A stretch of DNA of 64,000 nt from a plasmid: the sequence record NZ_CP019224.1; one strand, written 5' to 3'. The stretch's first letter is position 1. Each line of letters opens with the position of its first letter. A program made the translations under genes and the position numbers. Below, piece by piece: positions 1 to 45,078 of this stretch. Below the pieces are notes generated by a model. The model did no database searches and was not told the origin of the DNA. It saw only the letters and a program-made list of their open reading frames with translations.

Positions 1-682
1 CGGTGTGTTGGGCGGCGGCGATCATGGCGTCACGCACGGCGACGTCGGCGGTGATGGCGATGCCGGCGCGGGTCGGTAGCGTGCGACTGATCTGGTGTCC
101 CTCGAGTGCGGCGGCGATCTCTGCTGCGGCACCGATGACAAGCTCGCCGTGGTCGCCGAGGGCGATCGGCGGGGCTGGCGGCAGGGGCGCGAATTCGGCT
201 TGGATGTCGCTGCGCGCCGGGCTGACTCGTTCACCGCCGAGCACCCGGTGCGCGGTGACCAGAGAGTCGGTGTAGGGGTAGGTGGGCCCGGTTGCGCCGG
301 TGTCGGGGTCGTACCACTGGCCTTCGGTGGTGACATCACGAGTCATCAGGCGGCGCAGCACTGGAATCCCGGCGGCGCGCAGCGCGTCGCTCAGGGCGTC
401 GAGGACGGTGACGGCATGCCATTCGTAGCTTTCGTCGCACACGGCCAGGAGCACGGCGGCGTGGTTAGTTTCGGGCCGCAGGTTGCATGTGGCCGGGAAG
501 TTGGTGGCTTGTTCGGCGCTGATCGTGACATCGAAGCGAATTGCGCTGCGGACCACCAGGTCGCTGGTGTGGGTGTCACGGTGCAGCATGTAGGCGACGA
601 CGCTGTTGGTGGGTGCGAAGCCCAGGAATGCTGCTGCGGCGGCAACGATGTCGGCTTCGGTGCGCAAGGCGGTGGTGGGCAT
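1..682 (-). CDS. hypothetical protein, N-terminal part only; C-terminus lies beyond the window start
   Basis: ATG at 682-680 sits at the same position relative to repeat A1 as the other cassette genes, with a GGAGAA RBS 8 nt upstream on the minus strand. The in-frame translation MPTTALRTEADIVAAAAFLGFAPTNSVVAYMLHRDTHTSDLVVRSAIRFDVTISAEQ... is protein-like and stays open to the window edge. It is absent from the ORF track because no stop codon falls in the window. Confidence 0.5.
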   Translation of the reverse strand, partial: MPTTALRTEADIVAAAAAFLGFAPTNSVVAYMLHRDTHTSDLVVRSAIRFDVTISAEQATNFPATCNLRPETNHAAVLLAVCDESYEWHAVTVLDALSDALRAAGIPVLRRLMTRDVTTEGQWYDPDTGATGPTYPYTDSLVTAHRVLGGERVSPARSDIQAEFAPLPPAPPIALGDHGELVIGAAAEIAAALEGHQISRTLPTRAGIAITADVAVRDAMIAAAQHT

Positions 683-1093
683 AGTGTTGTTCTCCGTTCT
701 GTGCGGTGAGTGGTGCGCCGGTCAGCGCTGGGGGAGTGGGCTAATCGGGTGAGGGTGGGCGGTCAACCCCGAAGAGTCCCGCGCCGAACGCAGCAGGGTT
801 TTCGGCCCGCGCTCGCCTGGCGCGATAGCGCCATCGGGCGAGCTGGCATAGGGCCGAAAAGGTCACTCGGCCTGCGTAGTTCGGTGTGGGCGTGGGTTGA
901 CCGGTCGGGCCCCCGGCCGATTAGACTGCGACCCCAGCTGACGGCAAACAAGGTGAGGGGCTACGGATTTGGTGGCCACCGGCAGGTGGCCAGTCCGGGC
1001 GCGCGGGGCGCGCCGGCACCTCAGCGGACCGGAAGAAAAAGGGGGGCCCGGCCAACCCCTCACGATGGGAGAAGTGGCCGGGCCCCGGGAATG
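683..1093 (-). repeat. structured intergenic cassette-boundary repeat, subtype A, copy A1 (about 411 bp)
   Basis: About 95% identical to 3038-3447 and 6181-6584. Same module order as the other copies: terminator, GC hairpins, covarying rod, RBS and start codon. Confidence 0.9.
1035..1088 (-). terminator. rho-independent terminator inside repeat A1 (minus strand)
   Basis: On the minus strand an 11-bp perfect stem gggcccggcca/tggccgggccc is followed by cccTTTTTcTT. It lies about 15-20 nt after the stop of gene 1104-1277. Confidence 0.55.
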
Positions 1094-1103
1094 GTGATAC
1101 GTG

Positions 1104-1277
1104 TCAGTCGATGTCGCAGGCGGCGTCGCGCAACGCCTCAAGTAGATCGACGTTCTCACCGAGAGTCATGGTGTCGTGCCCCCACTGGCTGTACGTGCCG
1201 GTGAGGGTGTCGATGTAGAACGGGATCTCAACGGTGCGGTTTTCGACACCGCGCGTGATGGTGCCCTCGATGATCAT
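1104..1277 (-). CDS. hypothetical small protein (57 aa)
   Basis: Start MIIEGTITRG at 1277 is preceded by an AAAGGAGA RBS. The upstream part of ORF 1104-1622 is Pro/Thr-rich junk. Confidence 0.5.
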   Translation of the reverse strand: MIIEGTITRGVENRTVEIPFYIDTLTGTYSQWGHDTMTLGENVDLLEALRDAACDID

Positions 1278-1311
1278 CGCGTATCTCCTTTCAGGGTGGG
1301 CGACTGCGGGT

Positions 1312-1770
1312 TTAGGCGCTCCGCCGATGGGCGGCGGGCAGGCTGATGCGGGTAATGCCCCACGGGGCGCGGTCGTAGCCAGAGAGCGCCTGGACCAACA
1401 TGTTCTGCAGCTCGCGGCAGAATGCGTAGGCCTCGGTGTGCTGCCAGTCCTTGGGTTCGCAGGCCTGATATTCGAAGCACTGCAACGCCTTGAGTACTTC
1501 GATGACCGACCAGCTGGTGTGCAGGGGCCGGGTGTAGCGGTACTCGTAGGGCTCGTGGATGGGGTTGTTGAAGTAGCAATAGTTGACCGAGGCGGTGTTG
1601 GCGTCGACGAGCATCTGGCCAACCTGGTCGAGGTTGTCGTCGGTGAGCTGGTTGACGCGGATCGGGTTGTCGAAGACCCAGGTCAGGTTGCCCAGCGGCC
1701 GGTGGAATCCTTGGTGGCCGGCCCACAGCAGGACGTTGATGTGTTCGGCTTCGACGACGTATGCGCTCAT
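1312..1770 (-). CDS. hypothetical protein (152 aa)
   Basis: ATG at 1770 lies immediately after repeat B1, with a GGAGAA RBS inside the repeat. Sequence MSAYVVEAEHINVLLWAGHQGFH.... The 55-aa N-terminal extension in the ORF track is a read-through of the repeat. Confidence 0.55.
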   Translation of the reverse strand: MSAYVVEAEHINVLLWAGHQGFHRPLGNLTWVFDNPIRVNQLTDDNLDQVGQMLVDANTASVNYCYFNNPIHEPYEYRYTRPLHTSWSVIEVLKALQCFEYQACEPKDWQHTEAYAFCRELQNMLVQALSGYDRAPWGITRISLPAAHRRSA

Positions 1771-2193
1771 TGGTGTGTTCTCCGTTTCGGATGGTGATGT
1801 GGTGCGCTGGTCAGCGCTGGGGTGCGGGTAAGCGGGTGAGGGTGGGCGGTCCACCCCGACGAGTCCCGCGGCGGGTGTTCGCCGGGTTTTGGGTCCGCGC
1901 TCGCCGGCGCGAAGCGCCCTTCGGCGAGCTGGCATTAGGACCCAAAACAGTCACTCGGCACGGCGAGGCCCGGTGTGGGCGTGGGTGGACCGGTCGGGGT
2001 CCCCACCCGCTTACCATGAGCGCCCCGCTGACGGCTTAAAAGGGTGAGGGGCTACGGATTTGGTGGCCACCGGCAGGTGGCCAGTCCGGTCGCGCGGGGC
2101 GCGCCGGCACCTCAGCGGACCGGAAGAAAAGGGGGGCCCGGCCACCCCCTCGTGGTGGGAGAGGCGGCCGGGCCCGGAGAGGTCCTTGGGTTA
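1771..2193 (-). repeat. structured intergenic cassette-boundary repeat, subtype B, copy B1 (about 423 bp)
   Basis: About 97% identical to 4920-5344 and to 7128-7444. It includes the stop codon and last two codons of the upstream gene at one end and the RBS at the other. Confidence 0.9.
2125..2178 (-). terminator. rho-independent terminator inside repeat B1
   Basis: GC stem ggcccggcc..ggccgggcc followed by a T-run on the minus strand, directly after the stop of gene 2191-2493. Confidence 0.5.
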
Positions 2194-2493
2194 GGTCAGG
2201 CCTGCCGCGCGGATGCGGTCGCGGATCAGCGCCAGGTCGACGCTCCGTTTTATTGGACTCACATAGTGACTGGCCCAATTTTCAAATCCGTTTATCGCGG
2301 CTTCCACTTCGCTTATTTGGACCTCAGGGCGGGTGATCGCGATTTCGTCCCCGTTCTCGCGGTCGTAGGCCTTGGCCACGACGGCGACAAGTTGTCCGAT
2401 TCCGTCGACAGTTTGTCGGAACCGCATCTTGCGGCGCTTGCCGTCGGCGGGGTCAATGAAGTACCAGCCTTGGCAGTAGTCGATGTCGGTCAT
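2191..2493 (-). CDS. hypothetical protein (100 aa)
   Basis: Internal start MTDIDYCQGWYFIDPADGKRRK at 2493 with an AAAGGA RBS 8 nt upstream. The upstream ORF portion is Pro-rich junk. Confidence 0.5.
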   Translation of the reverse strand: MTDIDYCQGWYFIDPADGKRRKMRFRQTVDGIGQLVAVVAKAYDRENGDEIAITRPEVQISEVEAAINGFENWASHYVSPIKRSVDLALIRDRIRAAGLT

Positions 2494-2575
2494 GTCGATC
2501 AGTCCTTTCTGGTCGGGATGGTACGCGGCCGGGCCGACGTTCACGTGTGACGCTGGCCCGGCCGCGAAAGTGGGG

Positions 2576-3037
2576 TTAGGCCGCCAGCAGGGCGGCGGCG
2601 GCAATGTGGTCGAGGGCGGTGTCGAGGTCCTCGTGGACGACGGAGGGTTGGTTGTCGACGGTGACGGTCCACATCGGCTGGTCGCCGATTCCGGCGGTCA
2701 GAGTGCAGGTGTGGCCGGCGTGGGCGGCGCGGTAGGACCAGTCGTGGCCGGGGACGGCGTGAAAGGTGAGTTCACTGGCGCGGACCTTGAGGATTCGGGT
2801 GTGCGGCTCGGTGTTGAGGTCAGGTGCGGTCGCCTCGACGGCGGCCATCTGACCGTGGGCATCGGTGGCGAACAGGACCAGGCGGTGCCCACTTTCGCGG
2901 GTGTAGTCATGCACGGTGGTGAGCCCGATGTCGCCGTGGTTGTGAAAGAGAATTCGGGTGATGCCGTACTGCTGGTCCTGGATGCGTCCTGCGGCCTCGT
3001 CGACGAGGTTGAAGGCGAGCTCGAATTCGTGATCCAT
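2576..3037 (-). CDS. hypothetical protein (153 aa)
   Basis: ATG at 3037 abuts repeat A2. Sequence MDHEFELAFNLVDEAAGRIQDQQYG.... Confidence 0.55.
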   Translation of the reverse strand: MDHEFELAFNLVDEAAGRIQDQQYGITRILFHNHGDIGLTTVHDYTRESGHRLVLFATDAHGQMAAVEATAPDLNTEPHTRILKVRASELTFHAVPGHDWSYRAAHAGHTCTLTAGIGDQPMWTVTVDNQPSVVHEDLDTALDHIAAAALLAA

Positions 3038-3447
3038 GATGTTTGTCCGTTCTGTGCGGTGAGTGGTGCGCCGGTCAGCGCTGGGGGAGTGGGCTAATCG
3101 GGTGAGGGTGGGCGGTCAACCCCGAAGAGTCCCGCGCCGAACGCAGCAGGGTTTTCGGCCCGCGCTCGCCTGGCGCGAAGCGCCATGGGGCGAGCTGGCA
3201 TAGGGCCGAAAAGGTCACTCGGCCTGCGTAGTTCGGTGTGGGCGTGGGTTGACCGGTCGGGGCCCCCGGCCGATTAGACTGCGACCCCAGCTGACGGCAA
3301 ACAAGGTGAGGGGCTACGGATTTGGTGGCCACCGCCAGGTGGCCAGTCCGGTCGCGCGGGGCGCGCCGGCACCTCAGCGGACCGGAAGAAAAAGGGGGGC
3401 CCGGCCAACCCCTCACGATGGGAGAAGTGGCCGGGCCCCGGGAATGA
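3038..3447 (-). repeat. structured intergenic cassette-boundary repeat, subtype A, copy A2
   Basis: Near-identical to A1 and A3. Rod closing helix 3074-3086 / 3285-3295. Confidence 0.9.
3387..3440 (-). terminator. rho-independent terminator inside repeat A2
   Basis: Stem gggcccggcca/tggccgggccc plus T-run on the minus strand, 20 nt after the TAA stop of 3459-4436. Confidence 0.55.
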
Positions 3448-3458
3448 TCTGAATGCCG

Positions 3459-4436
3459 TTATCCGTCAGTCATGGTGGTATCGCCGGCGGGGCGATGGCC
3501 GGAGATCTCGTGGTAGCCGATCCTGTCGGTCCACGAGGCCAGCTCGTGCCGGCGGACCGACACGGTTTTGGAGTTGACCCGAACCACGGGGTACCAGTGG
3601 CCGCGATACTTGATGAGGTCACCTTTGGTGATGCTGTCGCGGCTGTGCGGGTTGGCGGCGCCGGATGCTTGCAGATCCGCGTAAACCGCTTTCCAGTAGG
3701 CGATTTGATCGCCACGTTGGGCCATGCGCGCGATCACCTGTTCACGGTAGGACCCGGAGGCGGGGGCGAACTCGTCGACGTATTCGTAGGTGGCCGTGCG
3801 CGCGACGACGCGACGGTAACCATCGAGAATGCGTTGATCGCCACGTTGCTCGGCTTCCAACTTCTCGATGCGGTTCTTCACCGTCACCGGGTTGTAGCGG
3901 TGAGCGGTGGTGGTCGCGGCGGCCTGTGCGCGGCCCTGTGCCTGGTGGGCGAGATCGGTCGCGTCAATCGCGCGGCGGGTTGCGTCGTGGGCGCGGGTGA
4001 TCGCGTTACGGTGGCGGCTCTCGCTGTGATGGCCGATCTTGATCGGCTCTCCACCGGGAGGCAGGGCCTCTACGGCGCGCTGCTCGGATTCCCAGGCGGC
4101 CGAGGCGGCGGCGGCTTTGCGGTCGGCTTTGGCGGCCAGGGCGTCGGCGCGCTGCGCCTGGCGGTGAGCGCGGTCGGCTTCGGCCTCGGCTGTGGGGCGA
4201 TGAGTGTCGTCGACGTCGACAGTTACCGTGTGGCCGGCGGCGCGCAGCGATTCGGCGGCACGCTCGATTTTGTATCGGTTGGGTTGACGATCGCGGCTGC
4301 CGGCGATACCCCATACACCGAGTGTGCGAAACCAACGGAATCCGGCGGCTTTGAGGATGGTGTTGGTGCCGTCTCCGCGGGCGGTGCCGTGTACGAGGGT
4401 TCCTTCAGCGGCGGTGTGGGTGATTTCGATAGTCAT
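3459..4436 (-). CDS. hypothetical protein (325 aa), DUF3560-like, common on actinobacterial plasmids and phages
   Basis: Intact ORF MTIEITHTAAEGTLVHGTARGDGT... with an Ala/Arg-rich coiled central region. The family assignment is from memory, not a search. Confidence 0.55.
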   Translation of the reverse strand: MTIEITHTAAEGTLVHGTARGDGTNTILKAAGFRWFRTLGVWGIAGSRDRQPNRYKIERAAESLRAAGHTVTVDVDDTHRPTAEAEADRAHRQAQRADALAAKADRKAAAASAAWESEQRAVEALPPGGEPIKIGHHSESRHRNAITRAHDATRRAIDATDLAHQAQGRAQAAATTTAHRYNPVTVKNRIEKLEAEQRGDQRILDGYRRVVARTATYEYVDEFAPASGSYREQVIARMAQRGDQIAYWKAVYADLQASGAANPHSRDSITKGDLIKYRGHWYPVVRVNSKTVSVRRHELASWTDRIGYHEISGHRPAGDTTMTDG

Positions 4437-4556
4437 TGGTGTTGTGCTCCTGGTCTTTTCGGGTTGAGGGGTGGGGTTGTTGGGATGAAAAGAGCCCGGC
4501 CGGCTTCTGAGTGATGCGGAAACAGGCCGGGCCCCGAGTTCGTGGTGAGGGCGTTG

Positions 4557-4919
4557 TCACGCTGTGACGAGTTGTCGGTGCACGTTTCGGCTGGCGTTGC
4601 CTTGGGTCAACCCGAGTCGCGAGGCGACGCGTGCCACGGTCCGCGAGGTTGTGTGAAGGCGCCAGGCGATGAGCTCTGGGTCGATTCGGCCATACATGCG
4701 TCGCACGGCTTCGTCACGGTCTTTGCCGCGCAGCGGCAGGCGTAACCCGTCGTTGGCGACTTGCAGGACAGCAAGCTCGTCGACGTCGGCCATTCGGTCG
4801 TCTTCACGGTGCCGCTCGTGCCTGTGTGGGTCGTGTGCTGACGTCTCGGGGGAGGACAGTGCTTGGGCTTCGTCTGGGCCGGTGATGGCCCATGGGTCTG
4901 GGGTGCTGATAGTGGTCAT
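4557..4919 (-). CDS. hypothetical protein with C-terminal HTH (120 aa)
   Basis: ATG at 4919 abuts repeat B2. The C-terminus WRLHTTSRTVARVASRLGL has an HTH-like pattern. Confidence 0.5.
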   Translation of the reverse strand: MTTISTPDPWAITGPDEAQALSSPETSAHDPHRHERHREDDRMADVDELAVLQVANDGLRLPLRGKDRDEAVRRMYGRIDPELIAWRLHTTSRTVARVASRLGLTQGNASRNVHRQLVTA

Positions 4920-5344
4920 TGGTGTGTTCTCCGTTTCGGATGGTGATGTGGTGCGCTGGTCAGCGCTGGGGTGCGGGTAAGCGGGTGAGGGTGGGCGGTC
5001 CACCCCGACGAGTCCCGCGGCGGGTGTTCGCCGGGTTTTGGGTCCGCGCTCGCCGGCGCGAAGCGCCCTTCGGCGAGCTGGCATTAGGACCCAAAACAGT
5101 CACTCGGCACGGCGAGGCCCGGTGTGGGCGTGGGTGGACCGGTCGGGGTCCCCACCCGCTTACCATGAGCGCCCCGCTGACGGCTTAAAAAGGGTGAGGG
5201 GCTACGGATTTGGTGGCCACCGGCAGGTGGCCAGTCCGGTCGCGCGGGGCGCGCCGGCACCGTGTGAGCTGGAAGAAAAAGGGGGGGCCCGGCCAACCCC
5301 TCGTGGTGGGAGAGGCGGCCGGGCCCGGAGAGGTCCTTGGGTTA
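4920..5344 (-). repeat. structured intergenic cassette-boundary repeat, subtype B, copy B2
   Basis: Near-identical to B1. Rod closing helix 4959-4971 / 5172-5181. Includes the stop codon of 5342-5755. Confidence 0.9.
5274..5330 (-). terminator. rho-independent terminator inside repeat B2
   Basis: GC stem plus T-run on the minus strand after the stop of 5342-5755. Confidence 0.5.
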
Positions 5345-5755
5345 GTACGGGTGCAGCTCGGCGTTGACTTCAGCGGCGGCCTCGGCGACGTCGTTGAGCA
5401 GGTCGACTTCCGCTTCGTCGAGTCGAGCGACGTCGCAGGTGCTGTAGTTAGCGTGATCGAGGACCGCGCTGCGTTCTTCTCGCAGCGTGTGCAGTCGTTT
5501 GAGGGCCTGGTCGAGCTCAAGGCGGGGATGGGTTTCGCGGCGCACGTGCGCGATGACGTGGCCGAGGTAGTCGAGGATTTCGCGGCGACTTCCTTGCAGG
5601 GCGAGACCGTCGCCGTTTCCGTTCCACAGTCCCAGGACGAAGGGCCCGCTGACTGCATCTTCGTCCTCGGGGTGGAATTTCTCGATTGCCCGCTCGCGCG
5701 GGTGCAGGGTGTAGAGGCTGTCCGCGGCGTGGCCCCATTCGATGTGATTACTCAT
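5342..5755 (-). CDS. hypothetical protein (137 aa)
   Basis: Internal ATG at 5755 gives MSNHIEWGHAADSLYTLHPRERAIEKF.... The upstream ORF part is Arg/Pro junk. Confidence 0.5.
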   Translation of the reverse strand: MSNHIEWGHAADSLYTLHPRERAIEKFHPEDEDAVSGPFVLGLWNGNGDGLALQGSRREILDYLGHVIAHVRRETHPRLELDQALKRLHTLREERSAVLDHANYSTCDVARLDEAEVDLLNDVAEAAAEVNAELHPY

Positions 5756-5784
5756 GGTGGATGCCTTGTGTGAGGTAGGTGGTT

Positions 5785-6180
5785 TCAGGCGACGACGTGG
5801 GTCAGGTGCGCTTGGATGCGGTGGTCGAGTTTGAGAATCTCGATCATTGCCGGCGTCTCGGTGTGCTCGCGGCGGACCGCGACGTCGACGCGGGTGATGA
5901 TCGTGGCCGCGATGCCGGGATTGCCACCTTTGAGGGCGAACGCAGCGGCCAGGGTGAGGGCTTCGATTCGGGCCTGTCCGCTGAGGTGATCGCCGATACG
6001 GCCCCACAGCAGTGCGGCCCGTAGCGGCCGGCGCTCGGCGATCTTGTAGAGCAGGGTCTTATAGCTGTCGTCGACCAGGAGTGGGGCGGCGAGCTCGGCG
6101 AGGCCTCGGCTGGGGTTGCAGGTCCCGTTGACGAGTTGGTTACGCAGATCAGCCAGGATCGCGATGCGGTTGTAGCACAT
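5785..6180 (-). CDS. hypothetical protein (131 aa)
   Basis: ATG at 6180 abuts repeat A3. Sequence MCYNRIAILADLRNQLVNG.... Confidence 0.5.
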   Translation of the reverse strand: MCYNRIAILADLRNQLVNGTCNPSRGLAELAAPLLVDDSYKTLLYKIAERRPLRAALLWGRIGDHLSGQARIEALTLAAAFALKGGNPGIAATIITRVDVAVRREHTETPAMIEILKLDHRIQAHLTHVVA

Positions 6181-6584
6181 GATGTTTGTCCGTTCTGTGC
6201 GGTGATGTGGTGCGCTGGTCAGCGCTGGGGGAGTGGGCTAATCGGGTGAGGGTGGGCGGTCAACCCCGAAGAGTCCCGCGCCGAACGCAGCAGGGTTTTC
6301 GGCCCGCGCTCGCCTGGCGCGAAGCGCCATGGGGCGAGCTGGCATAGGGCCGAAAAGGTCACTGGGCCTGCGTAGTTCGGTGTGGGCGTGGGTTGACCGG
6401 TCGGGGCCCCCGGCCGATTAGACTGCGACCCCTGCTGACGGCAAATAAGGTGAGGGGCTACGGATTTGGTGGCCACCGGCAGGTGGCCAGTCCGGTCGCG
6501 CGGGGCGCGCCGGCACCTCAGCGGACCGGAAGAAAAGGGGGGCCCGGCCACCCCCCGATGGGAGAGGCGGCCGGGCCCGGAATG
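6181..6584 (-). repeat. structured intergenic cassette-boundary repeat, subtype A, copy A3
   Basis: Near-identical to A1 and A2, with small variation in the terminator loop. Confidence 0.9.
6531..6580 (-). terminator. rho-independent terminator inside repeat A3
   Basis: GC stem ggcccggcc/ggccgggcc plus T-run on the minus strand after the stop of 6588-7127. Confidence 0.5.
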
Positions 6585-6587
6585 TGT

Positions 6588-7127
6588 TCAGGCCGCTCGA
6601 TAGTCGGCGTCGGTGGGATCGGCTTTGTAGCGCTCACCGTCTGCGAAGACCGCGATCGCCACTCGGTGGACCTGTCGAAACGCGTCGATCATCGACAGGA
6701 TCGCGGCGCGGTCACGCAATTGCCAGGTGATCGGGCCGGTGTAGAGCTCGACCCAGTGCAGTTTCGCGGTCTTGAGCTTGTTGAGCGCCGACTGTGCCAC
6801 GACAGCGTAAGCCGGTGCCCTCGTCCACTCGACGCCGAGCACTGCGCGGCCGGCGGGCTCCTCGGCCACGGCTCCAGCGGTGGGGATTTCCGCGGGGACA
6901 TGGATCATCTGAGTGCGCGCAGCGACGAAGGCCTCGAGCAGGCCCTGGGCTGTCTGGCAGTTCTGCAGGCTCATGTGCATGCCGCCGACCGTGATGCCGA
7001 TACGGGCGGACGGGGTGCGGGCGTGGTGCACGGTGATGTCGGGTTCGAGCTGGCCTTTGATGGACACGATGCTGTGAGTAATGACGCCGGCCGGCGTGAC
7101 GTAAATGGGTGTGGCGGATTTCGTCAT
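6588..7127 (-). CDS. hypothetical protein (179 aa)
   Basis: ATG at 7127 abuts repeat B3. Sequence MTKSATPIYVTPAGVITHSIVSIKGQ.... Confidence 0.5.
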   Translation of the reverse strand: MTKSATPIYVTPAGVITHSIVSIKGQLEPDITVHHARTPSARIGITVGGMHMSLQNCQTAQGLLEAFVAARTQMIHVPAEIPTAGAVAEEPAGRAVLGVEWTRAPAYAVVAQSALNKLKTAKLHWVELYTGPITWQLRDRAAILSMIDAFRQVHRVAIAVFADGERYKADPTDADYRAA

Positions 7128-7444
7128 TGGTGTGTTCTCCGTTTCGGATGGTGATGTGGTGCGCTGGTCAGCGCTGGGGTGCGGGTAAGCGGGTGAGGGT
7201 GGGCGGTCCACCCCGACGAGTCCCGCGGCGGGTGTTCGCCGGGTTTTGGGTCCGCGCTCGCCGGCGCGAAGCGCCCTTCGGCGAGCTGGCATTAGGACCC
7301 AAAACAGTCACTCGGCACGGCGAGGCCCGGTGTGGGCGTGGGTGGACCGGTCGGGGTCCCCACCCGCTTACCATGAGCGCCCCGCTGACGGCTTAAAAGG
7401 GTGAGGGGCTACGGATTTGGTGGCCACCGGCAGGTGGCCAGTCC
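7128..7444 (-). repeat. structured cassette-boundary repeat, subtype B, copy B3, truncated
   Basis: Homology to B1/B2 ends abruptly after the tggccaccggcaggtggcca hairpin at about 7444. The GC hairpin and terminator modules are missing. Confidence 0.85.
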
Positions 7445-7599
7445 CAGCGGCTGTACGCTGGTGTGATGTTTGAAGAGGCCTTCGCGCGTGACCTCATGAA
7501 GGGGCCGCAGGGTGTTGCGGTGCCGGCGATGACCTGGTTGGTGACCGGGCAGTGGCCGGTACCGGAGTTGAGCTTCGACGTGTCGTATCCGCGAGCTGA

Positions 7600-8328
7600 T
7601 TACTCGGGATTGCTGGCGTTTTGACCGGGTCGTTCGGGCGCGCTAAGTGCGCGAAGGCCACTGGATAGTGAGGCGAAGCGGCCGTACTGTTGGCCGGCGG
7701 CGGTGGTTTTTTCACCTAGCCAAATCCCGATGATTTGCGCGTAACCCTGTGAGGTTGGCGTCCACACCGGGCCTCCGGAGTCACCGGGGATGCTGGGCGG
7801 CATCCCTGTGGTCAGGTATTGGTCTCGGCCTTGGGCGGCCGCGATTTGTCCGCAGTGCTGTCCGCTGGAAACTCCGATGCGGCAGACAGTTTCGCCGACT
7901 TGGGGTTCGGGATGGTCGTCGGTAAAGAGCGTGTGGTTGGCGTCGATGAAGGCCGATGCCATGGAGTTGGTGTTGAAGTCGATCAGCGCGTAGTCGGCGC
8001 CGCCGCTGCGCGGCGACTCGAAAATGGTGCGCACGAACTTGCCGGTGAGTCCGCTTCGCTTGTCGCGCGCATAGCCTGACGCGGGGTCAGAGCGGCAGTG
8101 GGCGGCGGTGATGGCGTAGGTGTGCAGGTCCGCGCCGGTGTAGACGTAGCCGATGGTGCAGAACTGGTTGCCTCCGGTGGGGTTGATGTAGTCGACCTCT
8201 TCGCCGGGGCTGACCACGGCTAGCGCGGCGTGTGCCGAGGGTGGACCGGCTAGAGCCAGAGTTGCTGCGGTGAGCACCCCTGCGGCGGCGGCGAATCGGC
8301 GGGTGATGGCGTGCATGAGTGGGGTCAC
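7600..8328 (-). CDS. secreted trypsin-like (S1 family) serine protease
   Basis: Signal peptide MTPLMHAITRRFAAAAGVLTAATLALAGPPSAHA, catalytic His motif TAAHC, GDSGGPV serine motif, and conserved Cys pairs. Confidence 0.75.
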   Translation of the reverse strand: MTPLMHAITRRFAAAAGVLTAATLALAGPPSAHAALAVVSPGEEVDYINPTGGNQFCTIGYVYTGADLHTYAITAAHCRSDPASGYARDKRSGLTGKFVRTIFESPRSGGADYALIDFNTNSMASAFIDANHTLFTDDHPEPQVGETVCRIGVSSGQHCGQIAAAQGRDQYLTTGMPPSIPGDSGGPVWTPTSQGYAQIIGIWLGEKTTAAGQQYGRFASLSSGLRALSAPERPGQNASNPE

Positions 8329-8506
8329 CTTTCCGGGGGTTAGGCGGCGCGAGTGTGGCGCAGGCGACGCTCGGAGCGTAGTTGGGCGCGGGCGGTCATG
8401 CTGTCGATCCAGGCGCGGGCGGTGTTGGCGGCGGGCCCGGGCCGGCCCGGCGCTGCGGCGATGGCTGCGGCCGCGCGGTTGGTGATGGCGATCTCGAAAC
8501 GCGTTG

Positions 8507-10785: not shown

Positions 10786-10980
10786 TTGCCCTTCTGGCAT
10801 TGGGGATATAGACCGGCCCGCGGGTCGTGGAATGCAAGGCCCGGGCGCGAAGTTTTCCCAGTGAGCGCCAGCGAGCGGCTTGGGGAAAAGTTCGCGAGCC
10901 ACCGGCCCGCAGCAGCGCGGAGGCCGGCGCCTTGCAAGTAGCGACCCGGCCGGTCAGAATCGAAAGCCCAGAAGGCAGAA
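10786..10980. repeat. inverted-repeat-flanked element of about 195 bp, copy 1 (downstream of the parB-like gene)
   Basis: Termini ttgcccttctggca ... gcccagaaggcag are inverted. About 70% identical to 12814-13003. Confidence 0.7.
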
Positions 10981-28016: not shown

Positions 28017-29879
28017 TCACGCCGCATTGACCTGTCGGCCGGGGGCGTCGCTGTTCCAGACCCAACCGGGCAGCGCTTGCAGGCGTGCGGTTCGGCGCGG
28101 GTCCAGCGCGCCTTGCCGGTAGGTGTAGCGCTGCGTGTTGACCCATTGACCCAGCCGGAACCTGTCGGCGCTGATGTGGCCGTGCGGGACACGGGCGTGG
28201 CCGTGCTCGTCGACGAACTGGGTCAAGGCGGTGAAGCCACGTTCCCAGCGCTGCTCGCCGCTGGCGCCCCATACCCAACCCGGCAAGGCTTCCAGCCGTG
28301 CCGCACGGTCGGCGTCCAGCGCGCCTTGCCGATGGGTGTGGCGCTGTGCGTTGACCCATTGGCCTAGGCGAATGCCGTCACCGGTGATGTGTGCTGACGG
28401 GACGCGAGCGTGGCCGTGCTCGTCGACGAACTGGGTCAATGCGCGGAACCTGCCGTCCCAGCCGCAGTAAACGCCTGGGGTGCGGTCGCGCCGGCGCCAT
28501 ACCCAGCCTGGTAAGGCTTCCAGTCGTGCGGCGCGGCCGTCGTCGAGCTCGCCGCGGTGGTGCTTGCGGCGTTGGGCGGACACCCAGTCACCGAGGTGGA
28601 AGCTGTCGCTGCAGGTATGCCGTGACTCAACGTTGGCGTGGCCGTGCTCGTCGACGAACTGGGTGAGGGCGGTGAAGCCGCGTTCCCACTGCTCGTCGAG
28701 CCTGTCGCTCCAGGTCCAGCCGGGCGTGGCTTCTAGCCGTGCGACACGCTCGGCATTGACGCGGCCTTGGCGGTACTTGCGGCGCTGGTCACGCGCCCAC
28801 TGGCCAAGTTTGATCCCGTCGCTGGTGATGTAGTCGTTGGGGAAGCGGGCGTGACCGTGCTCGGCCACATACGCCCCTAACGTGGCGTAGAGCCGTTCCC
28901 ACAGGTCCTCGCGGCTTTCTCGCCATACCCAGCCCGGCAATGCTGCTAGCCGCGCGGCGCGAGCGGGGTTGAGCCGGTTGTCCTGATGGGAAGCGCGTTG
29001 GTTATCCACCCAGTCGCCGAGGCGAAAGTTGTCGGTGGTGATGTGAAGTCGAGCCACGTTGGCGTGGCCGTGTTCGGCAACGTACTGGGTGAGCGCGGTG
29101 AAGCCGTGTTCCCAGCGCTGCTCGAGCCACTGCTCGTGGCCCGCGTTCCCGTTCCAGGCCCAGCCCGGCAACGTTTCTAGACGTGCCGCGCGTGCGGGGT
29201 CGAGGCGGTTTTTGCGCTGGTCTCGCCGCTGGTCTGTTACCCATGCGCCGAGGCGGTGACCGTCATCGGTGATGTGGGAGCCCGGGACGCGGGCGTGGCC
29301 ATGTTGGGCGACGAACTGGGTCAGCGCGGCAAAGCCGCGTTCCCAGCGGTCTGCGCGGCTGTCGCGCCATACCCAGCCGGGCAACGTTTCTAGACGTGCC
29401 GCGCGTGCGGGGTCAAGGGTGTTTTGTTGGTGGCGGGAACGTTGGTTGCCCACCCATGTTCCGAGCGGGGTGCCGTCTCGAGAGACATGGTTTTGCGGGA
29501 CGCGCGCATGCCCGTGCTGAGCGACGAACTGGGTCAGCGCGGCGAACATGGCATCCCAATAGGCCTGGTGGGGTGTAGCCCAGCGCGGGCCGAGCAACGC
29601 GGCAAGCTGCGCTGCCCGCTCATCATCAAGTAGGTTGGTGCGGTGGGCTTTTCGCTGCTCATTAAGCCAGCGGCCCGGGAAGCGACCGTTTTCAGTTCGG
29701 TAGTCCTCGGGTATGCGGGCGTGGCCATGCTCGGCGATGAACGCGGTCAGTTCGTCCAGCATGTCAGCCCAGCGAGTCGGTGTGCGATGCTGCGGCCCAG
29801 CGTGCTGCGGTTCGGGGTGATCGCCGGCGGCCGGCGATGCGGGAGTTTGTGGTACCAAATCCTGTGTGGCCGTGGTCAT
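28017..29879 (-). CDS. helicase-associated (HA) domain repeat protein, about 9 tandem HA repeats, no helicase core
   Basis: Repeated about 66-aa units AEHGHARIPEDYRTENGRFPGRWLNEQRKAHRTNLLDDERAAQLAAL.... Start taken at MTTATQDL. Confidence 0.65.
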   Translation of the reverse strand: MTTATQDLVPQTPASPAAGDHPEPQHAGPQHRTPTRWADMLDELTAFIAEHGHARIPEDYRTENGRFPGRWLNEQRKAHRTNLLDDERAAQLAALLGPRWATPHQAYWDAMFAALTQFVAQHGHARVPQNHVSRDGTPLGTWVGNQRSRHQQNTLDPARAARLETLPGWVWRDSRADRWERGFAALTQFVAQHGHARVPGSHITDDGHRLGAWVTDQRRDQRKNRLDPARAARLETLPGWAWNGNAGHEQWLEQRWEHGFTALTQYVAEHGHANVARLHITTDNFRLGDWVDNQRASHQDNRLNPARAARLAALPGWVWRESREDLWERLYATLGAYVAEHGHARFPNDYITSDGIKLGQWARDQRRKYRQGRVNAERVARLEATPGWTWSDRLDEQWERGFTALTQFVDEHGHANVESRHTCSDSFHLGDWVSAQRRKHHRGELDDGRAARLEALPGWVWRRRDRTPGVYCGWDGRFRALTQFVDEHGHARVPSAHITGDGIRLGQWVNAQRHTHRQGALDADRAARLEALPGWVWGASGEQRWERGFTALTQFVDEHGHARVPHGHISADRFRLGQWVNTQRYTYRQGALDPRRTARLQALPGWVWNSDAPGRQVNAA

Positions 29880-37725: not shown

Positions 37726-40050
37726 ATGGCGGAGTTAACAAGTACGGGCGGGGACGAGTTTCCCGCGTGGTGGTCAGAACGCAATAACAAGCAGGCGGCG
37801 CGCCTGCTCAAGGCGGTCAACCGGGGGCCAGTGGGTAAAATTCAGCCGCCGTCACTACCGCATGTCGGCAGTGATCATCCGCGGCCGCAGGGAGCCTTCG
37901 TCCGGTTTCTGTTCCAACCGTATGTGTGGCCGGAAGACTCTGAGACCGCCATGAACGCCGGCGCCGACAAGTTTGCTGATGACTTCAAACTGCACGATGA
38001 CAGCGCGACGACAATCCGCCAGGCGGCGAACGGCGTCTTCGACGGCGGGTCATGGGTGGGCGAGAGCGCGGACGCTGCTCGCGCGGCCCACTTTGAAGCG
38101 GCGTCGATCAAGGATTTCCAGGCGGAGATCGCGCGCGTTGCCTCCGGTTTGATCAGGCGCGGCGCCGACGATGTGGCGAGCACCAAGAAGCACATGTTCG
38201 AGCAGAACACGCAGGCGCATCAAGAGGCCGAGGCCTTCCTAAAAAGCGGCTCGGGGCAGTCGCTGGCGCAGGTAGCGGTGATTCTCGGTGTGCACCGAAC
38301 GACGATCCAGGCCTATTCGACTGAGTTGCAGGGCTACGCCACCCAATACACCGTTCAGTTCACCAACCACTTTAAAGAGGGCGGCCCCGGCGGCCCAAAA
38401 TTCAAACAAGCTGGCAATGGTACAGACAATAAGGACCCGTCGACTGACGGTCCAGGGACGCCAGATCTGGGTCCCCCGAGACAGCCCGGGGGTGGGCGAG
38501 TTCATGCCTCATCAGACGGTCCCAACGACGGTGCAGCACCTCCTGCACCAGGCGGATCGGGACGCGTACACGCGCCCTCGTCGGATGCTCCGTTTGGATC
38601 ACCGCGTCATAACCCGTTGACGTCGTTGATGGGTAGTGGGTTGCCGAGTTTGCCGAGTATGCCTGGCGGGGGATCGGGTGGTGGGCTTCCTATGGGCCCG
38701 TTGCAGGGGTTGATGGGTAGTTTTGGCGGTCTGCCGGGCGGTATGGCCCCGCCCACGGGGCTGGGTGCGCCTGGGCTGCAGGGCTCGCCGATGCCGTCCT
38801 TGGGGATGGACTTCGGGCGAGGTTTAGCGGCGGGCGCGGCGGCGGCAGGGGGTGTTCCGCCGGTGACGTCGGCGCCGATGACGTCGTTGGCGGCGCCGAT
38901 CGAGTCGGCTCCGACGTCGGCTGCGCCAGCGGTGGCTCCTGTGTCTACTGCGCCGGCGGCGGCCGCTTCCGCCCCTGCACCGGCACCGGCGGCGGGTATG
39001 CCGGCAGGAGGCATGACTTCGTACGGTTCCGTTCTTCCTCCGCAGGGCCCGCCGCCGGCCGCTCCGTCGGCGGGCGGCTCGACGCCTGCCGCCCCATCAA
39101 TACCGGCTGAGCCCGGAGGTGGGTCGCCCGGGCCTGGGACCGGGTTGATGCCGGTGGCGGGTCGGCGTGATGTGGTGACGGTGCGCAAGGATGACGCATA
39201 TTCGGATTTGGAAACGGCCAAGGGCCTTGTCGCCGAACTCGCTGGGGCGGCGAAAGTAACTGATCCTGGATTGGATTGGGCTGTGGCCGTTGGCCGTAAC
39301 GCCTCGGGCATGCCGACGTACTGGGTTGCCACGAACGACGGCGCGACCTACATCCCGCCAGTGGTGTTCCTGCGCAAGACGATGCCCATCGCCGGTGGCC
39401 ACGATGCAGATTTTGACGCGCGCTGGTTCGGCTGGGTCAACCCGGCCGATAAAGCGGTGCGGGCGGCCCGGGAGTTCGGGGACACGGTGAGTGCGGTGGC
39501 CACGTCGTGGGCGCTGCCCTCTGAGTTTTTGAGGGAGCACCCGGCGCCGGAAGTGGCCACTGGCGTGAAACCCTCTGACGTGGCGGATAATGCGGCGGCG
39601 GAATTGTTGGCGTCGCGGGCCCATCGGCTGCAGACCGTGGACGCCGCCTTATATGCGGATCTGATGGGGGCCGATGAGTCGGTGGTGCGTGACTACTGCC
39701 GAGAGTTGATCCGCCAGTTGGCATTTGGTATTCCGGGTGAGGCGTTGTCGCCGGTTGCGCAGTCCGTGGCGCACTCACTCGTCGCTGAGCGCTGGCCCAC
39801 AGTCCAGGAGTGGGCGCTGCTCGGCGAGGAACACGAAGACGCTTTGGTTCAGATGGCGTGCCAGCGACCGGGACTGGACGGAATAGAAAACCCTGACCAG
39901 ACGGTCAGCTACACACGAGAATTCATCCGGTGCCGCCAGATAGAGGCTCTCTTGTGCTGGGACCGTTATGGGGGCGACCTACTCAACGTAGTGTATGCAG
40001 CATGGGTGGCCGGTATACGGGCGCCATTGAAGGAACCGGCACTGCGGTGA
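37726..40050 (+). CDS. EspK-like ESX-associated protein: WXG-like N-terminal helical domain, long Pro/Ala/Gly-rich linker, conserved C-terminal domain (774 aa)
   Basis: GGSWVGESADAARAAHFEAAS (W-x-G) and about 350 aa of low complexity. The C-terminal YWVATNDGATYIPPVVFLRK...WFGWVNPADKAV resembles the EspK C-terminal family. Recalled from memory. Confidence 0.45.
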   Translation: MAELTSTGGDEFPAWWSERNNKQAARLLKAVNRGPVGKIQPPSLPHVGSDHPRPQGAFVRFLFQPYVWPEDSETAMNAGADKFADDFKLHDDSATTIRQAANGVFDGGSWVGESADAARAAHFEAASIKDFQAEIARVASGLIRRGADDVASTKKHMFEQNTQAHQEAEAFLKSGSGQSLAQVAVILGVHRTTIQAYSTELQGYATQYTVQFTNHFKEGGPGGPKFKQAGNGTDNKDPSTDGPGTPDLGPPRQPGGGRVHASSDGPNDGAAPPAPGGSGRVHAPSSDAPFGSPRHNPLTSLMGSGLPSLPSMPGGGSGGGLPMGPLQGLMGSFGGLPGGMAPPTGLGAPGLQGSPMPSLGMDFGRGLAAGAAAAGGVPPVTSAPMTSLAAPIESAPTSAAPAVAPVSTAPAAAASAPAPAPAAGMPAGGMTSYGSVLPPQGPPPAAPSAGGSTPAAPSIPAEPGGGSPGPGTGLMPVAGRRDVVTVRKDDAYSDLETAKGLVAELAGAAKVTDPGLDWAVAVGRNASGMPTYWVATNDGATYIPPVVFLRKTMPIAGGHDADFDARWFGWVNPADKAVRAAREFGDTVSAVATSWALPSEFLREHPAPEVATGVKPSDVADNAAAELLASRAHRLQTVDAALYADLMGADESVVRDYCRELIRQLAFGIPGEALSPVAQSVAHSLVAERWPTVQEWALLGEEHEDALVQMACQRPGLDGIENPDQTVSYTREFIRCRQIEALLCWDRYGGDLLNVVYAAWVAGIRAPLKEPALR

Positions 40051-40769
40051 ACGAAAGCTATTCCGCAGCAGCGGATTTAGCGGACACCATAACCATGTTG
40101 ATGACGGAGCCGCGGCCTTTGCCGCGGCAGTTGAAGCGGCTAAAGAAACGTAGCGAGTGGCCGATCGATGAAGCGCTGCTAGTTTTCGAAGCGGCGGTGG
40201 AGTATGTCGCTATCCGCAATAACTATGACGCCGTGGCCGATTGGAAGAGGCGTCAGGCAAAGCTCAACGGTTGGTTAGGGGTTCTTCAACGTGAGCCGGC
40301 ACCGATGTCCGATGAGCAATTTGCTGCCAGCATAGTCGCGTGCGGGAGAGTGGACCCGACCGAGCTGGAAGCAGTTCTGGTCGGTACTAGGCACACGGCG
40401 GCCTTGTTGGACGACATTGCCGAGGTGATAGCCGAGCACCAGCGCGAGCACGAAGAAACTGAGCGGATGAACCGGGCGGTGGCGCGTGGGCGCGAGCGGG
40501 TGAGGATGATCATGAAGCGGTGCGTGGAGCGTCGCGCAGAAATCAGCGCGGCTACAGAAGAACGCCTACAACAAATTTCGCCGGAAGATGCCGCCTCCCA
40601 GAAGTTAGCTATTGAGGCCGCTTATCCGGATCTGATCGTGCTGAGCGAGACAGCGTGTGAACAGATCAACGCGCAGACGCGCCGCGTGTTGGACGCGCAT
40701 CGACGCACGGCAGCGATGCCGATTTGGCAGTTCTGGGAGATGGCCTACAAAGACCTAATCGAGGATTGA
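40047..40769 (+). CDS. hypothetical protein (240 aa)
   Basis: GTG overlaps the upstream stop (GTGA). Sequence VNESYSAAADLADTITMLMTEPRPLPRQLKRLKK.... Confidence 0.4.
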   Translation: MNESYSAAADLADTITMLMTEPRPLPRQLKRLKKRSEWPIDEALLVFEAAVEYVAIRNNYDAVADWKRRQAKLNGWLGVLQREPAPMSDEQFAASIVACGRVDPTELEAVLVGTRHTAALLDDIAEVIAEHQREHEETERMNRAVARGRERVRMIMKRCVERRAEISAATEERLQQISPEDAASQKLAIEAAYPDLIVLSETACEQINAQTRRVLDAHRRTAAMPIWQFWEMAYKDLIED

Positions 40770-40844
40770 ATACCGAGATCGTAGCCGTGATCGCCGCCTT
40801 TGGTGGACATCGTGGCCGTGGGGGCAGTGGTGCTAGGAGGGACC

Positions 40845-41089
40845 GTTAGGGCGTTGGCCAGTAGCCGACAACGCCGTTGAATTCGAGGTCAGTTTGGGTG
40901 AAGTCGTTGCCGAGTGGCGTAGGCCATGGTGTCGCCGTAGTTGACGGCTGCGGGGTGGCGTCCCTTCCCGTAGTGGAGGTAGGCGCTGTGGGCGTCGATC
41001 GCGTGTTCGAGGGTGAAGGGTTCGGGCGCGTGCGCGCGCGCGTCTTCCCGGCGGTATGACCGTTGCCGTTGAGTGTGTTTGAGTTGCAC
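40845..41089 (-). pseudogene. truncated vapC (PIN) remnant: C-terminal 66 aa only
   Basis: About 85% identical at DNA level to 45075-45330. Protein [34 protein letters not shown] matches the VapC C-terminus. The 5' part is missing at the IS607 boundary. Confidence 0.65.
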
Positions 41090-42740: not shown

Positions 42741-42741
42741 A

Positions 42742-43323
42742 TCACGCAGCCCCTGGCTCCCGCTTGGTGGCCGTCACCGCACGCATCGCCCGATTCCGCG
42801 CACCACGACGGCCGTAGAGCCGCGCACACATACTGGTCAGGACCTCGATCATGTCGCGCACCAGATCATCGGTGGTCTCACCCGGATCAGCGACCACGAT
42901 CCGGCGGCCCTGCGCCGACAACGCCGCTTCCAGGTGTTCCACCCCGAAACGCGCCAGCCGATCCCGATGCTCCACAACGATCACCCTCGCATCGGGGTCC
43001 GACAAGATGCGGCGCAGCTTGGGCCGCTTCCCATTCAGCCCGGAACCGACCTCGCACACCACCTGGCCCACCTCAAGATCACGCTCCGTGGCCCACGCGG
43101 TCACCCGCGCCACCTGACGGTCCAGATCCGAGCGCTGATCATGGCTGGACACCCGCGCATACACCACCACCGTCGCCGCCGCACCCGATACCGAGGCTGC
43201 CGCCTTGACCAGAATCAGCCGCCCAACCCGCTCCGCGGGCACCGGCAACGTCCCCTCCCGAAACCACCGATAAGCGGTATGCCGGTTCACACCAACCGAT
43301 TCCGCCCAATCCGCCAGATTCAC
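42742..43323 (-). CDS. tnpA: IS607-family TnpA: MerR-like HTH plus serine recombinase (resolvase) domain
   Basis: MNLADWAESVGVNRHTAYRWFREG as the HTH. VVYARVSSHDQRSDLDRQ as the catalytic Ser region. Confidence 0.75.
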   Translation of the reverse strand: MNLADWAESVGVNRHTAYRWFREGTLPVPAERVGRLILVKAAASVSGAAATVVVYARVSSHDQRSDLDRQVARVTAWATERDLEVGQVVCEVGSGLNGKRPKLRRILSDPDARVIVVEHRDRLARFGVEHLEAALSAQGRRIVVADPGETTDDLVRDMIEVLTSMCARLYGRRGARNRAMRAVTATKREPGAA

Positions 43324-43394
43324 AACACCAATTAGAAGACACTAACGCACACTTAAATGCACTCACTGCGCAACAGCTCGCAACCCCGCCCACG

Positions 43395-44825: not shown

Positions 44826-44975
44826 GACGGACCCACGGGGCTGGGTGCGCCGGGTTGCAGGGCTCACCGATGCCATCGCTGGGGATGGACTTCGGGCGAG
44901 GTTTAGCGGCGGGTGCTGCGGCGGCAGCGGGTGTTCCGCCGGTGACATCGGCGCCGATGACGTCGTTGGCGAGAT
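44825..44975. other. duplicated internal fragment of about 150 bp from the EspK-like gene (about 38752-38900), abutting the IS256 right end
   Basis: cacggggctgggtgcgcc...ggatggacttcgggcgaggtttagcggcggg...ccgccggtgac is near-identical to the internal Pro-rich region of 37726-40050. Confidence 0.7.
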
Positions 44976-45078
44976 CCAAATAGAGACTCAACGAGTCTTG
45001 CTGTTACACAGGCGAACTGCCGAGGTTTCGACTCGCGAGCTGTACGAACACGCGGGGCAGATGAATTAGTTGGGACCG

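Follow-up and report, generated by a model that had tools for sequence, protein, structure and literature searches.

The closest described systems are Frpo/ssi, the single-stranded-DNA promoters of the plasmids F and ColIb-P9 (Masai and Arai 1997, as described in PMC9849209 and PMC11541004). In the papers that we consulted, promoters of this kind are described for proteobacterial plasmids, and elsewhere there are tentative candidates only (PMC11541004, PMC9849209). Actinobacteria are not mentioned in these two papers, and a survey of leading regions for Frpo-like elements mentions neither actinobacteria nor mycobacteria. The repeats reported here are not described in the first description of pRAW (PMC4173767), and we found nothing relevant in the full-text literature on leading regions or single-stranded-DNA promoters combined with mycobacteria.

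A second system that works in the leading region is that of the conserved upstream repeats (CUP) of the IncN plasmids pKM101 and R46 (Delver and Belogurov 1997, as described in PMC6294495 and PMC6289460). The CUP repeats, of >400 bp, precede seven units of the pKM101 leading region, and in the accounts that we draw on zygotic induction is proposed for them; expression on entry in the absence of the repressor has been shown for Reg576 of p576 (PMC6294495, PMC6289460).

Two other kinds of folded element bear comparison. Integron attC sites are imperfect palindromes of 57-141 nt that lie between cassettes of the same orientation and act as one folded strand; they stand 3' of promoterless cassettes and need an adjacent integrase. 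The single-strand origins ssoA and ssoU of rolling-circle plasmids are orientation-specific hairpins of 150-300 nt that are active only as single-stranded DNA and are recognised by host RNA polymerase. They make short primers, occur once per plasmid and are uncoupled from RBS, gene and terminator, unlike the elements described below, whose copies form an array and are coupled to all three.

Repeat units and the edge of the array

The window (the whole stretch of DNA analysed, 64,000 nucleotides of the plasmid record NZ_CP019224.1) contains six copies of one intergenic repeat of ~400 bases, all of them upstream of − strand genes. Two subfamilies alternate along the window in the order A1, B1, A2, B2, A3, B3. 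In the sense of the genes, a unit begins with a terminator stem-loop and T-run straight after the preceding stop codon, followed by a GC hairpin and a 20-nt palindrome; then come the motif GTAGCCCCTCACC, an imperfect hairpin of ~224 nt that we call the rod, and a leader of ~40 nt with the RBS GGAGAA, which ends at the ATG. The five internal copies have both the GC hairpin (e.g. 2088-2107) and the terminator stem with its T-run (e.g. 2134-2175). In all five, a GC-rich stem-loop and T-run lie directly past the stop codon on the coding strand, as in intrinsic terminators, and a terminator scan placed minus-strand intrinsic terminators at 1059, 2149, 3412, 5300 and 6578, corresponding to these five copies and not to B3. 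The copies (located with nhmmer), the parts of A3 and B3 and the neighbouring genes are:

680-1092, − strand: copy A1, full unit, upstream of a DUF4192 gene that runs off the window
1768-2183, − strand: copy B1, full unit, identical to B3 across 1768-2087
3036-3446, − strand: copy A2, full unit
4917-5334, − strand: copy B2, full unit
6179-6585, − strand: copy A3, full unit, with terminator stem 6540-6578, GC hairpin 6494-6513, palindrome 6470-6489 and rod 6217-6439
6588-7127, − strand: first cassette gene, 179 aa, no family match, start codon at 7125-7127
7125-7444, − strand: copy B3, first in transcription order, with palindrome, motif, rod, leader, RBS and ATG
7128-7165, − strand: leader of B3, from the rod base to the start codon; the RBS GGAGAA reads TTCTCC at 7135-7140 on the + strand
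7166-7389, + strand: rod, imperfect hairpin of 224 nt, with its best fold on the + strand
7343-7348, + strand: −35-like hexamer TGGACC (TTGACC in A copies), in the loop-to-base direction along the 3' arm of the + strand hairpin
7369-7374, + strand: −10-like hexamer TACCAT (TAGACT in A copies), straddling a helix end and an internal loop
7400-7412: conserved motif between palindrome and rod, GGTGAGGGGCTAC on the + strand and GTAGCCCCTCACC in gene sense
7421-7440: palindrome TGGCCACCGGCAGGTGGCCA, 20 nt, present in 6/6 window copies
7445-7599, no strand assigned: non-repeat spacer from B3 to the protease gene, with a homologous flank in pMyong1, L091 and L093
7600-8328, − strand: secreted serine protease gene (Rv1815-like), last of an upstream nrdH-toprim-protease block

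The nhmmer match of B3 (7446-7125) covers positions 98-417 of the model. The palindrome reads TGGCCACC-GGCA-GGTGGCCA, with arms of 8 bp and a loop of 4 nt, and the GTAGCCCCTCACC motif is near-invariant among the copies examined. Inside the window, terminator types and rod types assort independently.

By megablast, this region of the window belongs to mycobacterial plasmids of the pMAH135, pMyong1 and pRAW type, with 27 matching records, every one from Mycobacterium, Mycolicibacterium or Mycobacteroides. With B3 as the query, a more sensitive search found 144 places in 30 plasmids, in Mycobacteriaceae only. A scan of a genome collection followed by nhmmer added 106 repeat copies in 39 contigs, and every multi-copy contig whose record title was seen is from Mycobacteriaceae; the pattern used for that scan was too permissive and gave many lone chance matches in unrelated phyla, so that only the loci confirmed by nhmmer were kept. 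A phage collection searched with B3 gave zero matches, the whole window matched no Rfam family at gathering thresholds, and nhmmer found no copies outside the array in the rest of the 64-kb window. Related plasmids carry 6-10 copies each, every copy ending at a start codon, and the content of the cassettes varies among plasmids while the repeats persist. A miniature inverted-repeat transposable element was rejected as an identity for the repeat, since the copies all have one orientation, are confined to the array and stand in register with start codons.

The copy at the far end of the array, B3, differs from the others at its 5' side. Its positions 7125-7444 are identical to 1768-2087 of B1 at 320 of 320 bases, which is exact homology and rules out a chance pattern, and the next base, 7445, is C in B3 and G in every other copy. 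Similarity to the other copies thus extends 4 nt (GTCC) past the palindrome, and by alignment and terminator scan B3 has neither the GC hairpin nor the terminator. These results confirm a preliminary description of this DNA, which had placed the end of the B3 homology at about 7444, after the palindrome and without a terminator, and had called the adjoining 155 bp, as far as the protease gene, unrelated. The 155 nt at 7445-7599 are unlike the other copies and are homologous to the flank of the protease gene in pMyong1 and two genome contigs.

The same description had offered two readings of this end, the leading edge of the array or a recombination junction of ancient date, and had named the palindrome a candidate crossover point, at which array ends might always fall. 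For nine annotated plasmids and further contigs, the first copy of each array was compared with the internal ones. Boundaries were taken from these within-array comparisons, because the start of the nhmmer model match is a misleading proxy for the start of a first copy: the sequence of the GC hairpin differs between plasmids and escapes local alignment even if the hairpin is present. In ~14 related arrays compared, no first copy has the terminator stem. The boundary lies upstream of the GC hairpin in L002, L003, L004, L005/L007, L008, L009, L106 and L114, and the first copy of L004 additionally retains part of the T-run. Only in the window and in L097/L091_3300 does the boundary coincide with the palindrome edge; in pMyong1 (L001) it falls within a degenerate palindrome, and in L093, where the palindrome is absent, it lies downstream of the palindrome site. 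The window, L001, L091_659 and L093 have a common protease flank and differ precisely at the boundary stretch, and some copies of L082 have lost the GC hairpin together with the palindrome.

The leading-edge reading is supported by these comparisons, as related first copies also lack the terminator stem and the terminator abuts the stop codon of the gene before it. Each terminator forms the 3' end of the cassette that comes before; B3 has no cassette upstream, hence no terminator, and so appears truncated. As such it is an ordinary array edge, and in the lineage of the window it has additionally lost the GC hairpin. The reading of the palindrome as a junction is not supported, because first-copy boundaries scatter over ~80 nt upstream of the invariant motif; nor do arrays always end there, the ends of the related arrays being, in a weak form, arbitrary. 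The palindrome is neither a universal array end nor indispensable. That B3 and B1 are 100% identical shows a recent gene conversion, and 7444 is then simply the position at which B3 ceases to share anything with its donors.

Strand preference of the rod fold

The rod folds far better than shuffled sequence on both strands, and the + strand, the template of the genes, is the better folder. With identical parameters the template strand gave the more stable fold in 65 of 65 distinct copies, and isolated 1x1 mismatches in Watson-Crick-only folds, a test independent of wobble energies, were G:T on the template strand in 40 cases and on the sense strand in 1; both counts overstate the number of independent events, since the copies are related by descent and gene conversion, which clustering corrects partly. 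When 122 rods were clustered at 90% identity, the template strand was more stable in all 34 clusters. On average the template strand was the more stable by 15 kcal/mol under DNA parameters and by 27 under RNA parameters, and the + strand used 587-630 G:T pairs against 84-160 on the sense strand. To allow for the richness of the + strand in G, dinucleotide shuffles were made for the two strands separately; they gave z = −5.1 for the template and −3.2 for the sense strand, the template value being the lower in 30/34 clusters (p=3e-7).

Compensatory changes occur in 14 of the 34 consensus pairs that RNAalifold found in a MAFFT alignment of 32 rods. Just 34 pairs were recovered because of indels, and the strand tests were therefore done on per-sequence folds. 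From these sequence comparisons the structure of the rod appears to be under selection. A partial alternative explanation for the wobble bias is C-to-T deamination of a strand that is often single-stranded, which would likewise enrich G:T there.

The same sliding comparison was applied to the leading region of F as a control. Frpo2, the structured intergenic region upstream of ssb, and Frpo1, upstream of ygeA/ygeB, favour the template strand by 5-9 kcal/mol, and the hok region, a known RNA structure, favours the sense strand. With this control, the template-strand preference makes a messenger RNA leader structure a poor explanation, and the view of the rod as an ordinary upstream mRNA element, taken in the preliminary description, gives way to one in which the opposite strand is the structured one. 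The rod is a structure of the template strand.

The small palindrome behaves differently. Its arms change in compensated fashion in related plasmids (GGCCCC/GGGGCC, GCCCGCC/GGCGGGC, GGCCGCC/GGCGGCC), so that symmetry is preserved across four sequence classes, as fits a hairpin or a dimer operator alike. Among its variants, eight broken Watson-Crick stems are rescued by G:T on the template strand and eight others lengthen the stem by G:T on the sense strand, which leaves its strand preference ambiguous.

Promoter-like hexamers and the plasmid setting

On the + strand hairpin, the 3' arm carries, in the direction from loop to base, GTGGGT-TGACC in every copy, with the variants TGGACC, TTGCGC, TTGACA and TTGAGC; TTG is conserved in this upstream hexamer. 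A second hexamer follows 19-20 nt onward and reads TAGACT, TACCAT, TAGGCT, TACGCT, CACACT, CATACT or CAGACT. It conforms to [T/C]ANNNT, in which A2 and T6 are invariant in 34 clusters, positions 3-5 are free and position 1 is C in about 40% of the clusters. A2 and T6 correspond to the pair of −10 positions that sigma recognises on the non-template strand. Within the folded rod this hexamer is paired over its first bases, and its last bases lie in an internal loop. Along their own arm the boxes stand 19-20 nt apart, a long spacing for a duplex promoter; because this arm has a bulge of 3-4 nt, the distance measured along the template arm is exactly 17 nt in either subfamily. For a polymerase heading to the rod base and then to the gene, the arm with the hexamers is the non-template strand, a geometry described for Frpo (PMC9849209, PMC11541004).

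The equivalent hexamers on the sense strand (TAGCCC, TACCCG, TGACCG, CCCCGC) are without T6, there is no conserved sense-strand TANNNT between terminator and RBS, and a promoter scan found no sigma-70-type promoter on either strand of 1-8400. With a terminator between cassettes, every repeat must supply its own promoter. The hexamers may instead form a double-stranded + strand promoter that drives an antisense RNA, but the 19-20-nt spacer is poor for duplex DNA, and no consistent + strand terminator was seen.

The gene order around the array is shared by the annotated plasmids. In the orientation of the window it begins with a MobF relaxase gene on the − strand and 0-2 small + strand genes; the array follows, with small − strand genes and one repeat ahead of each, and beyond it lie the protease, toprim and nrdH genes and then a gene with a ParB N-terminal domain. 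The array genes are upstream of the relaxase gene and co-directional with it in 8/8 annotated plasmids with a visible mobF. They include DUF932, DUF4192, DUF3560 and DUF3846 genes and, in M. chelonae, a cytosine methyltransferase, and many are unannotated; some arrays encode helix-turn-helix proteins. In searches of the cassette proteins against Pfam and NCBIfam, DUF4192, DUF3560 and the Rv1815-like protease were matched and the remainder gave no match. A primase-like gene (zinc-ribbon + toprim) lies just upstream of the array.

Next to mobF, a conserved inverted repeat followed by a tail is a + strand candidate for oriT. In L008 this block consists of GCACAAACTTGTGC then CAATGTGCCGGAAG, forming inverted repeat and tail, and we take it to resemble the nick regions of F and R388. 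The layout of F matches, in that its leading genes are co-directional with the tra genes and point at oriT. These genes encode a ParB-like protein, a methylase, an antirestriction protein, SSB and PsiB, with the DUF932 gene ygeB nearest oriT; in the mycobacterial arrays, too, the DUF932 gene is at the relaxase-side end among the shared gene types, and the ParB-like protein and, in L009, a methyltransferase are also shared with F. One element precedes the DUF932 gene in both systems, Frpo1 before ygeB in F (PMC9849209) and a rod immediately before the DUF932 gene in pMyong1. By analogy with F and R388 and from the candidate inverted repeat, we predict that the array makes up the leading region, the part transferred first, of a conjugative plasmid of the mycobacterial pRAW/pMAH135/pMyong1 type, and that the + strand is the one transferred as well as serving as template for the array genes.

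Candidate single-stranded promoters and their alternatives

We think it probable, by a modest degree, that the rods act in the leading region as single-stranded promoters like Frpo, with sequences unrelated to it. Like Frpo, they are long imperfect hairpins upstream of genes that, here as predicted, lie in a leading region, are early and have the transferred strand as template; there is more than one near-identical copy per plasmid, as with Frpo1 and Frpo2 at 92% identity; the stem re-forms −35 and −10 boxes along its non-template arm, reading toward the gene and judging here by sequence; and the template-strand fold is the more stable. They differ from Frpo in occurring in another phylum with a GC-rich host, in forming a regular array of 6-10 copies instead of 2-3, in being paired, unit by unit, with a terminator and two small hairpins, and in a −10-like element of the form TANNNT/CANNNT that is not TATAAT-like. 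Against the F leading region there was no nhmmer match and blastn gave only chance matches, and as there is no similarity to Frpo or to Rfam families we regard the relationship as analogy, not membership. The repeat family is a credible candidate for a new form of single-stranded promoter, in a phylum for which we found none described.

We infer the strand transferred, the activity of the promoter and its timing. The region itself is built of cassettes, each comprising, in gene sense, a GC hairpin, the small palindrome, the GTAGCCCCTCACC motif, the rod, the leader with its RBS, one or two small genes and an intrinsic terminator, and what passes for one repeat by sequence similarity is the terminator of cassette n−1 joined to the putative promoter module of cassette n. 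As the + strand enters the recipient single-stranded, the rod would fold, and its 3' arm would present the −35-like TTGACC/TGGACC and the partly unpaired −10-like [T/C]ANNNT as the non-template strand. Host RNA polymerase could then start near the rod base and transcribe leftward on the single-stranded template into the gene, and the terminator would halt it ahead of unwinding the next rod. Synthesis of the complementary strand would remove the hairpin and so turn the promoter off. Mycobacterial sigma-A is not known to use a hairpin promoter. The promoter model offers no account of the invariant GTAGCCCCTCACC motif, the GC hairpin or the palindrome.

The main rival is a CUP-like arrangement, which we consider unlikely, in which a plasmid repressor controls ordinary double-stranded promoters through the palindrome as a dimer operator and zygotic induction follows in a repressor-free recipient. 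There is precedent for conserved upstream repeats in a leading region (PMC6294495, PMC6289460), and by its description the CUP system shares with ours a repeat of ~400 bp or longer before each of several leading-region transcription units, carrying the expression signals of establishment genes. The perfect palindrome, with its symmetric changes between plasmids, is what an operator co-evolving with its repressor would look like, some arrays encode helix-turn-helix proteins, and first copies mostly keep the palindrome though they need no insulation from an upstream cassette. However, CUP repeats are described as double-stranded promoters with ArdK/ArdR operators, whereas here the hairpin is tuned to the template strand, and a conserved 224-nt hairpin with such tuning is left unaccounted for. 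No sense-strand promoter was seen in the window repeats, with neither a conserved TANNNT nor a hit in the promoter scan, the palindrome is wholly missing from some copies (L093, L082), and no ArdK/ArdR-like protein was identified. That the rods are instead priming sites, elements akin to single-strand initiation sites or single-strand origins on the transferred strand that yield primers rather than messenger RNA, made by RNA polymerase or by the plasmid's DnaG-like toprim protein, is in our estimate quite unlikely as their sole role. It would suit the preference of the fold for the transferred template strand and the primase-like gene just upstream, and several copies along the leading region would hasten conversion to double-stranded DNA; but the fixed register with RBS and start codon and the terminator after the gene are the design of an expression unit and needless for priming. 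A priming role is compatible with the promoter reading, as Frpo was first described as doing both.

Two further explanations we hold to be very improbable. If the rod were a structured 5' untranslated region, acting in stability, processing or translational control of messages that start further upstream, its place directly 5' of the RBS would be natural, and the sense strand does still beat its shuffles (z −3.2). Yet this strand is the worse folder in every one of the 65 copies, at the wobble positions the sense RNA would have A:C in 40 cases against G:U in 1, the opposite of the hok RNA region of F, and there is no evident promoter upstream of the rod. We rejected a messenger RNA structure on the grounds that the sense strand folds worse and the wobble bias is on the template strand. 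The least probable of all the readings is that the palindrome or the folded element is an integron-like site for site-specific crossover and cassette capture, with the boundary of B3 as a scar. Cassettes that differ between plasmids while the repeats persist speak for such a site, as does the independent assortment of terminator and rod types in the window; the boundaries of the window and L097/L091_3300 do lie at the palindrome edge, and pMyong1 has a tyrosine recombinase gene ~7 kb upstream. But the boundaries of ~14 arrays are spread over roughly 80 nt, mostly outside the palindrome, no conserved integrase was found in the annotated stretches shown of related plasmids, and in most plasmids other than pMyong1 no recombinase is annotated in the stretches shown. 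The IS110 copies in L005 are inserted elsewhere, and repeats of 400 bp that are 80-100% identical suffice for ordinary homologous recombination. Although attC sites resemble the rods as imperfect palindromes between cassettes of one orientation, the element here lies at the 5' side of the gene and includes the RBS, and each cassette has its terminator. On what defines membership of those classes, transposable elements and integrons were both rejected.

We return to the promoter reading for what it may mean. We put at about even the wider proposition that mycobacterial conjugative plasmids (of the pRAW, pMAH135 and pMyong1 type, with relatives in Mycolicibacterium and Mycobacteroides) have their own family of single-stranded-DNA promoters, arranged as a modular cassette array and firing before the entering strand is copied. 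It is through single-stranded promoters that F-like plasmids come to express genes for anti-defence and SOS inhibition within minutes of entering a recipient. If the mycobacterial rods are such promoters, they would be a general solution for conjugation instead of one peculiar to enterobacteria, and the small genes without annotation that follow the rods, dozens in number, would become candidate establishment or anti-defence genes for mycobacteria. Plasmids of the pRAW type move among slow-growing mycobacteria, M. tuberculosis included, in the laboratory. The repeat supplies a concrete 224-nt element with two invariant bases and a defined list of probable early genes, and the strand-asymmetry test, checked against F, could reveal such elements in other phyla.

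Alternation of rod subfamilies and exchange between repeat copies

The rods, imperfect hairpins read as Frpo-like single-stranded promoters, were assigned to subfamily A or B by their -10-like hexamer (TAGACT versus TACCAT/TACCGT). In the window, the two subfamilies alternate perfectly across 680-7444 (A,B,A,B,A,B), and the array of pMyong1 (L001 9424-17793) is perfectly alternating as well (A,B,A,B,A,B,A,B). Because these arrays are related, the two alternations do not count as independent observations. Two other related arrays (L003 and L006) show only partial alternation. An A/B order may reduce deletion between adjacent direct repeats.

The terminator modules of the window, which lie after the preceding stop codon, are covered by repeat families D4 and D8:

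947-1104, terminator module
2038-2194, terminator module
3300-3457, terminator module
5188-5345, terminator module
6444-6555, terminator module

Module type is not predicted by rod type: the module upstream of copy B1 is 98% identical to that of A3, and the A1 module matches the A2 module. Since module types are independent of rod types, exchange has occurred somewhere inside the stretch that the copies share, consisting of the motif, the palindrome and the GC hairpin.

The sequence TCTTCCGG lies 3' of the terminator stem (1030-1040, 2120-2130 and equivalents in the window) and is found in all related arrays. It persists in plasmids that have a wholly different terminator stem and no T-run, for example GGTGTGGTGTCTTCCGG in L005, L007 and L008.

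Additional elements in the rods and at the array edge

Every rod in the window carries a G-quadruplex pattern (GGGG-N3-GGG-N5-GGG-N3-GGG-N-GGG) on its + strand 5' arm:

730-759, +, pattern match
1819-1846, +, pattern match
3083-3112, +, pattern match
4968-4995, +, pattern match
6227-6256, +, pattern match
7176-7203, +, pattern match

On single-stranded DNA, a G-quadruplex could compete with the rod hairpin. GC-rich DNA often contains patterns of this type. In front of DUF4192/DUF932-side genes stands a rod subfamily with a perfect TTGACA and an additional internal hairpin of ~45 nt (GCCGGCCG...CGGCCGGC). At 260-270 nt it is the longest variant (L002 16894-17163, L004 19304-19570, L112 and L014).

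Immediately adjoining the end of B3, the first copy in transcription order, is a further hairpin:

7444-7461, +, terminator-like hairpin CCAGCGGCTGTACGCTGG followed by TGTGATGTTT

This hairpin would halt rightward (antisense) transcription out of the rod, and the internal repeat copies of the window have no counterpart of it.

Insertion sequences and unrelated repeats

Three identical IS110-family copies are present in the M. gilvum array:

L005 11653-12858, IS110-family copy
L005 17683-18888, IS110-family copy
L005 21801-23006, IS110-family copy

All are inserted at GTCCTT in the RBS region, just 5' of the start codons of genes within or adjoining the array; none of the three interrupts a repeat or a palindrome. 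Further repeat families occur elsewhere in the window (28054-29538; 45846-48391; 38773-45285). They comprise a 213-228-nt periodic repeat in seven copies, a duplicated segment of ~1.1 kb (99% identical) and 93-120-nt pairs spaced about 4-6 kb, and are not related to the rod array.

A second hairpin near nrdH and a candidate oriT

Upstream of the nrdH-toprim-protease block, the gap that separates nrdH from the ParB-like gene contains another hairpin:

10811-10955, 145-nt hairpin unrelated to the rods

Its centre (TTTTCCC/GGGGAAAA) recalls the rods, and its + strand 3' arm carries TTGCAA-17 nt-CAGAAT (10932-10960). The two strands differ little in folding energy (-51.3 versus -48.7 kcal/mol). 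This hairpin may represent a further type of single-stranded promoter.

A conserved block lies immediately 5' of the relaxase gene mobF (L001 about 7420-7470; equivalents in L002-L006, L008 and L009). It occurs in two versions, one containing ...ACCGAAYYGTGACCTGAGTGCAAGAGGTGTG... and the other GCACAAACTTGTGC followed by CAATGTGCCGGAAGTCTG. The latter forms an inverted repeat with a tail, similar to the nick regions of F and R388. The conserved block is a candidate oriT.
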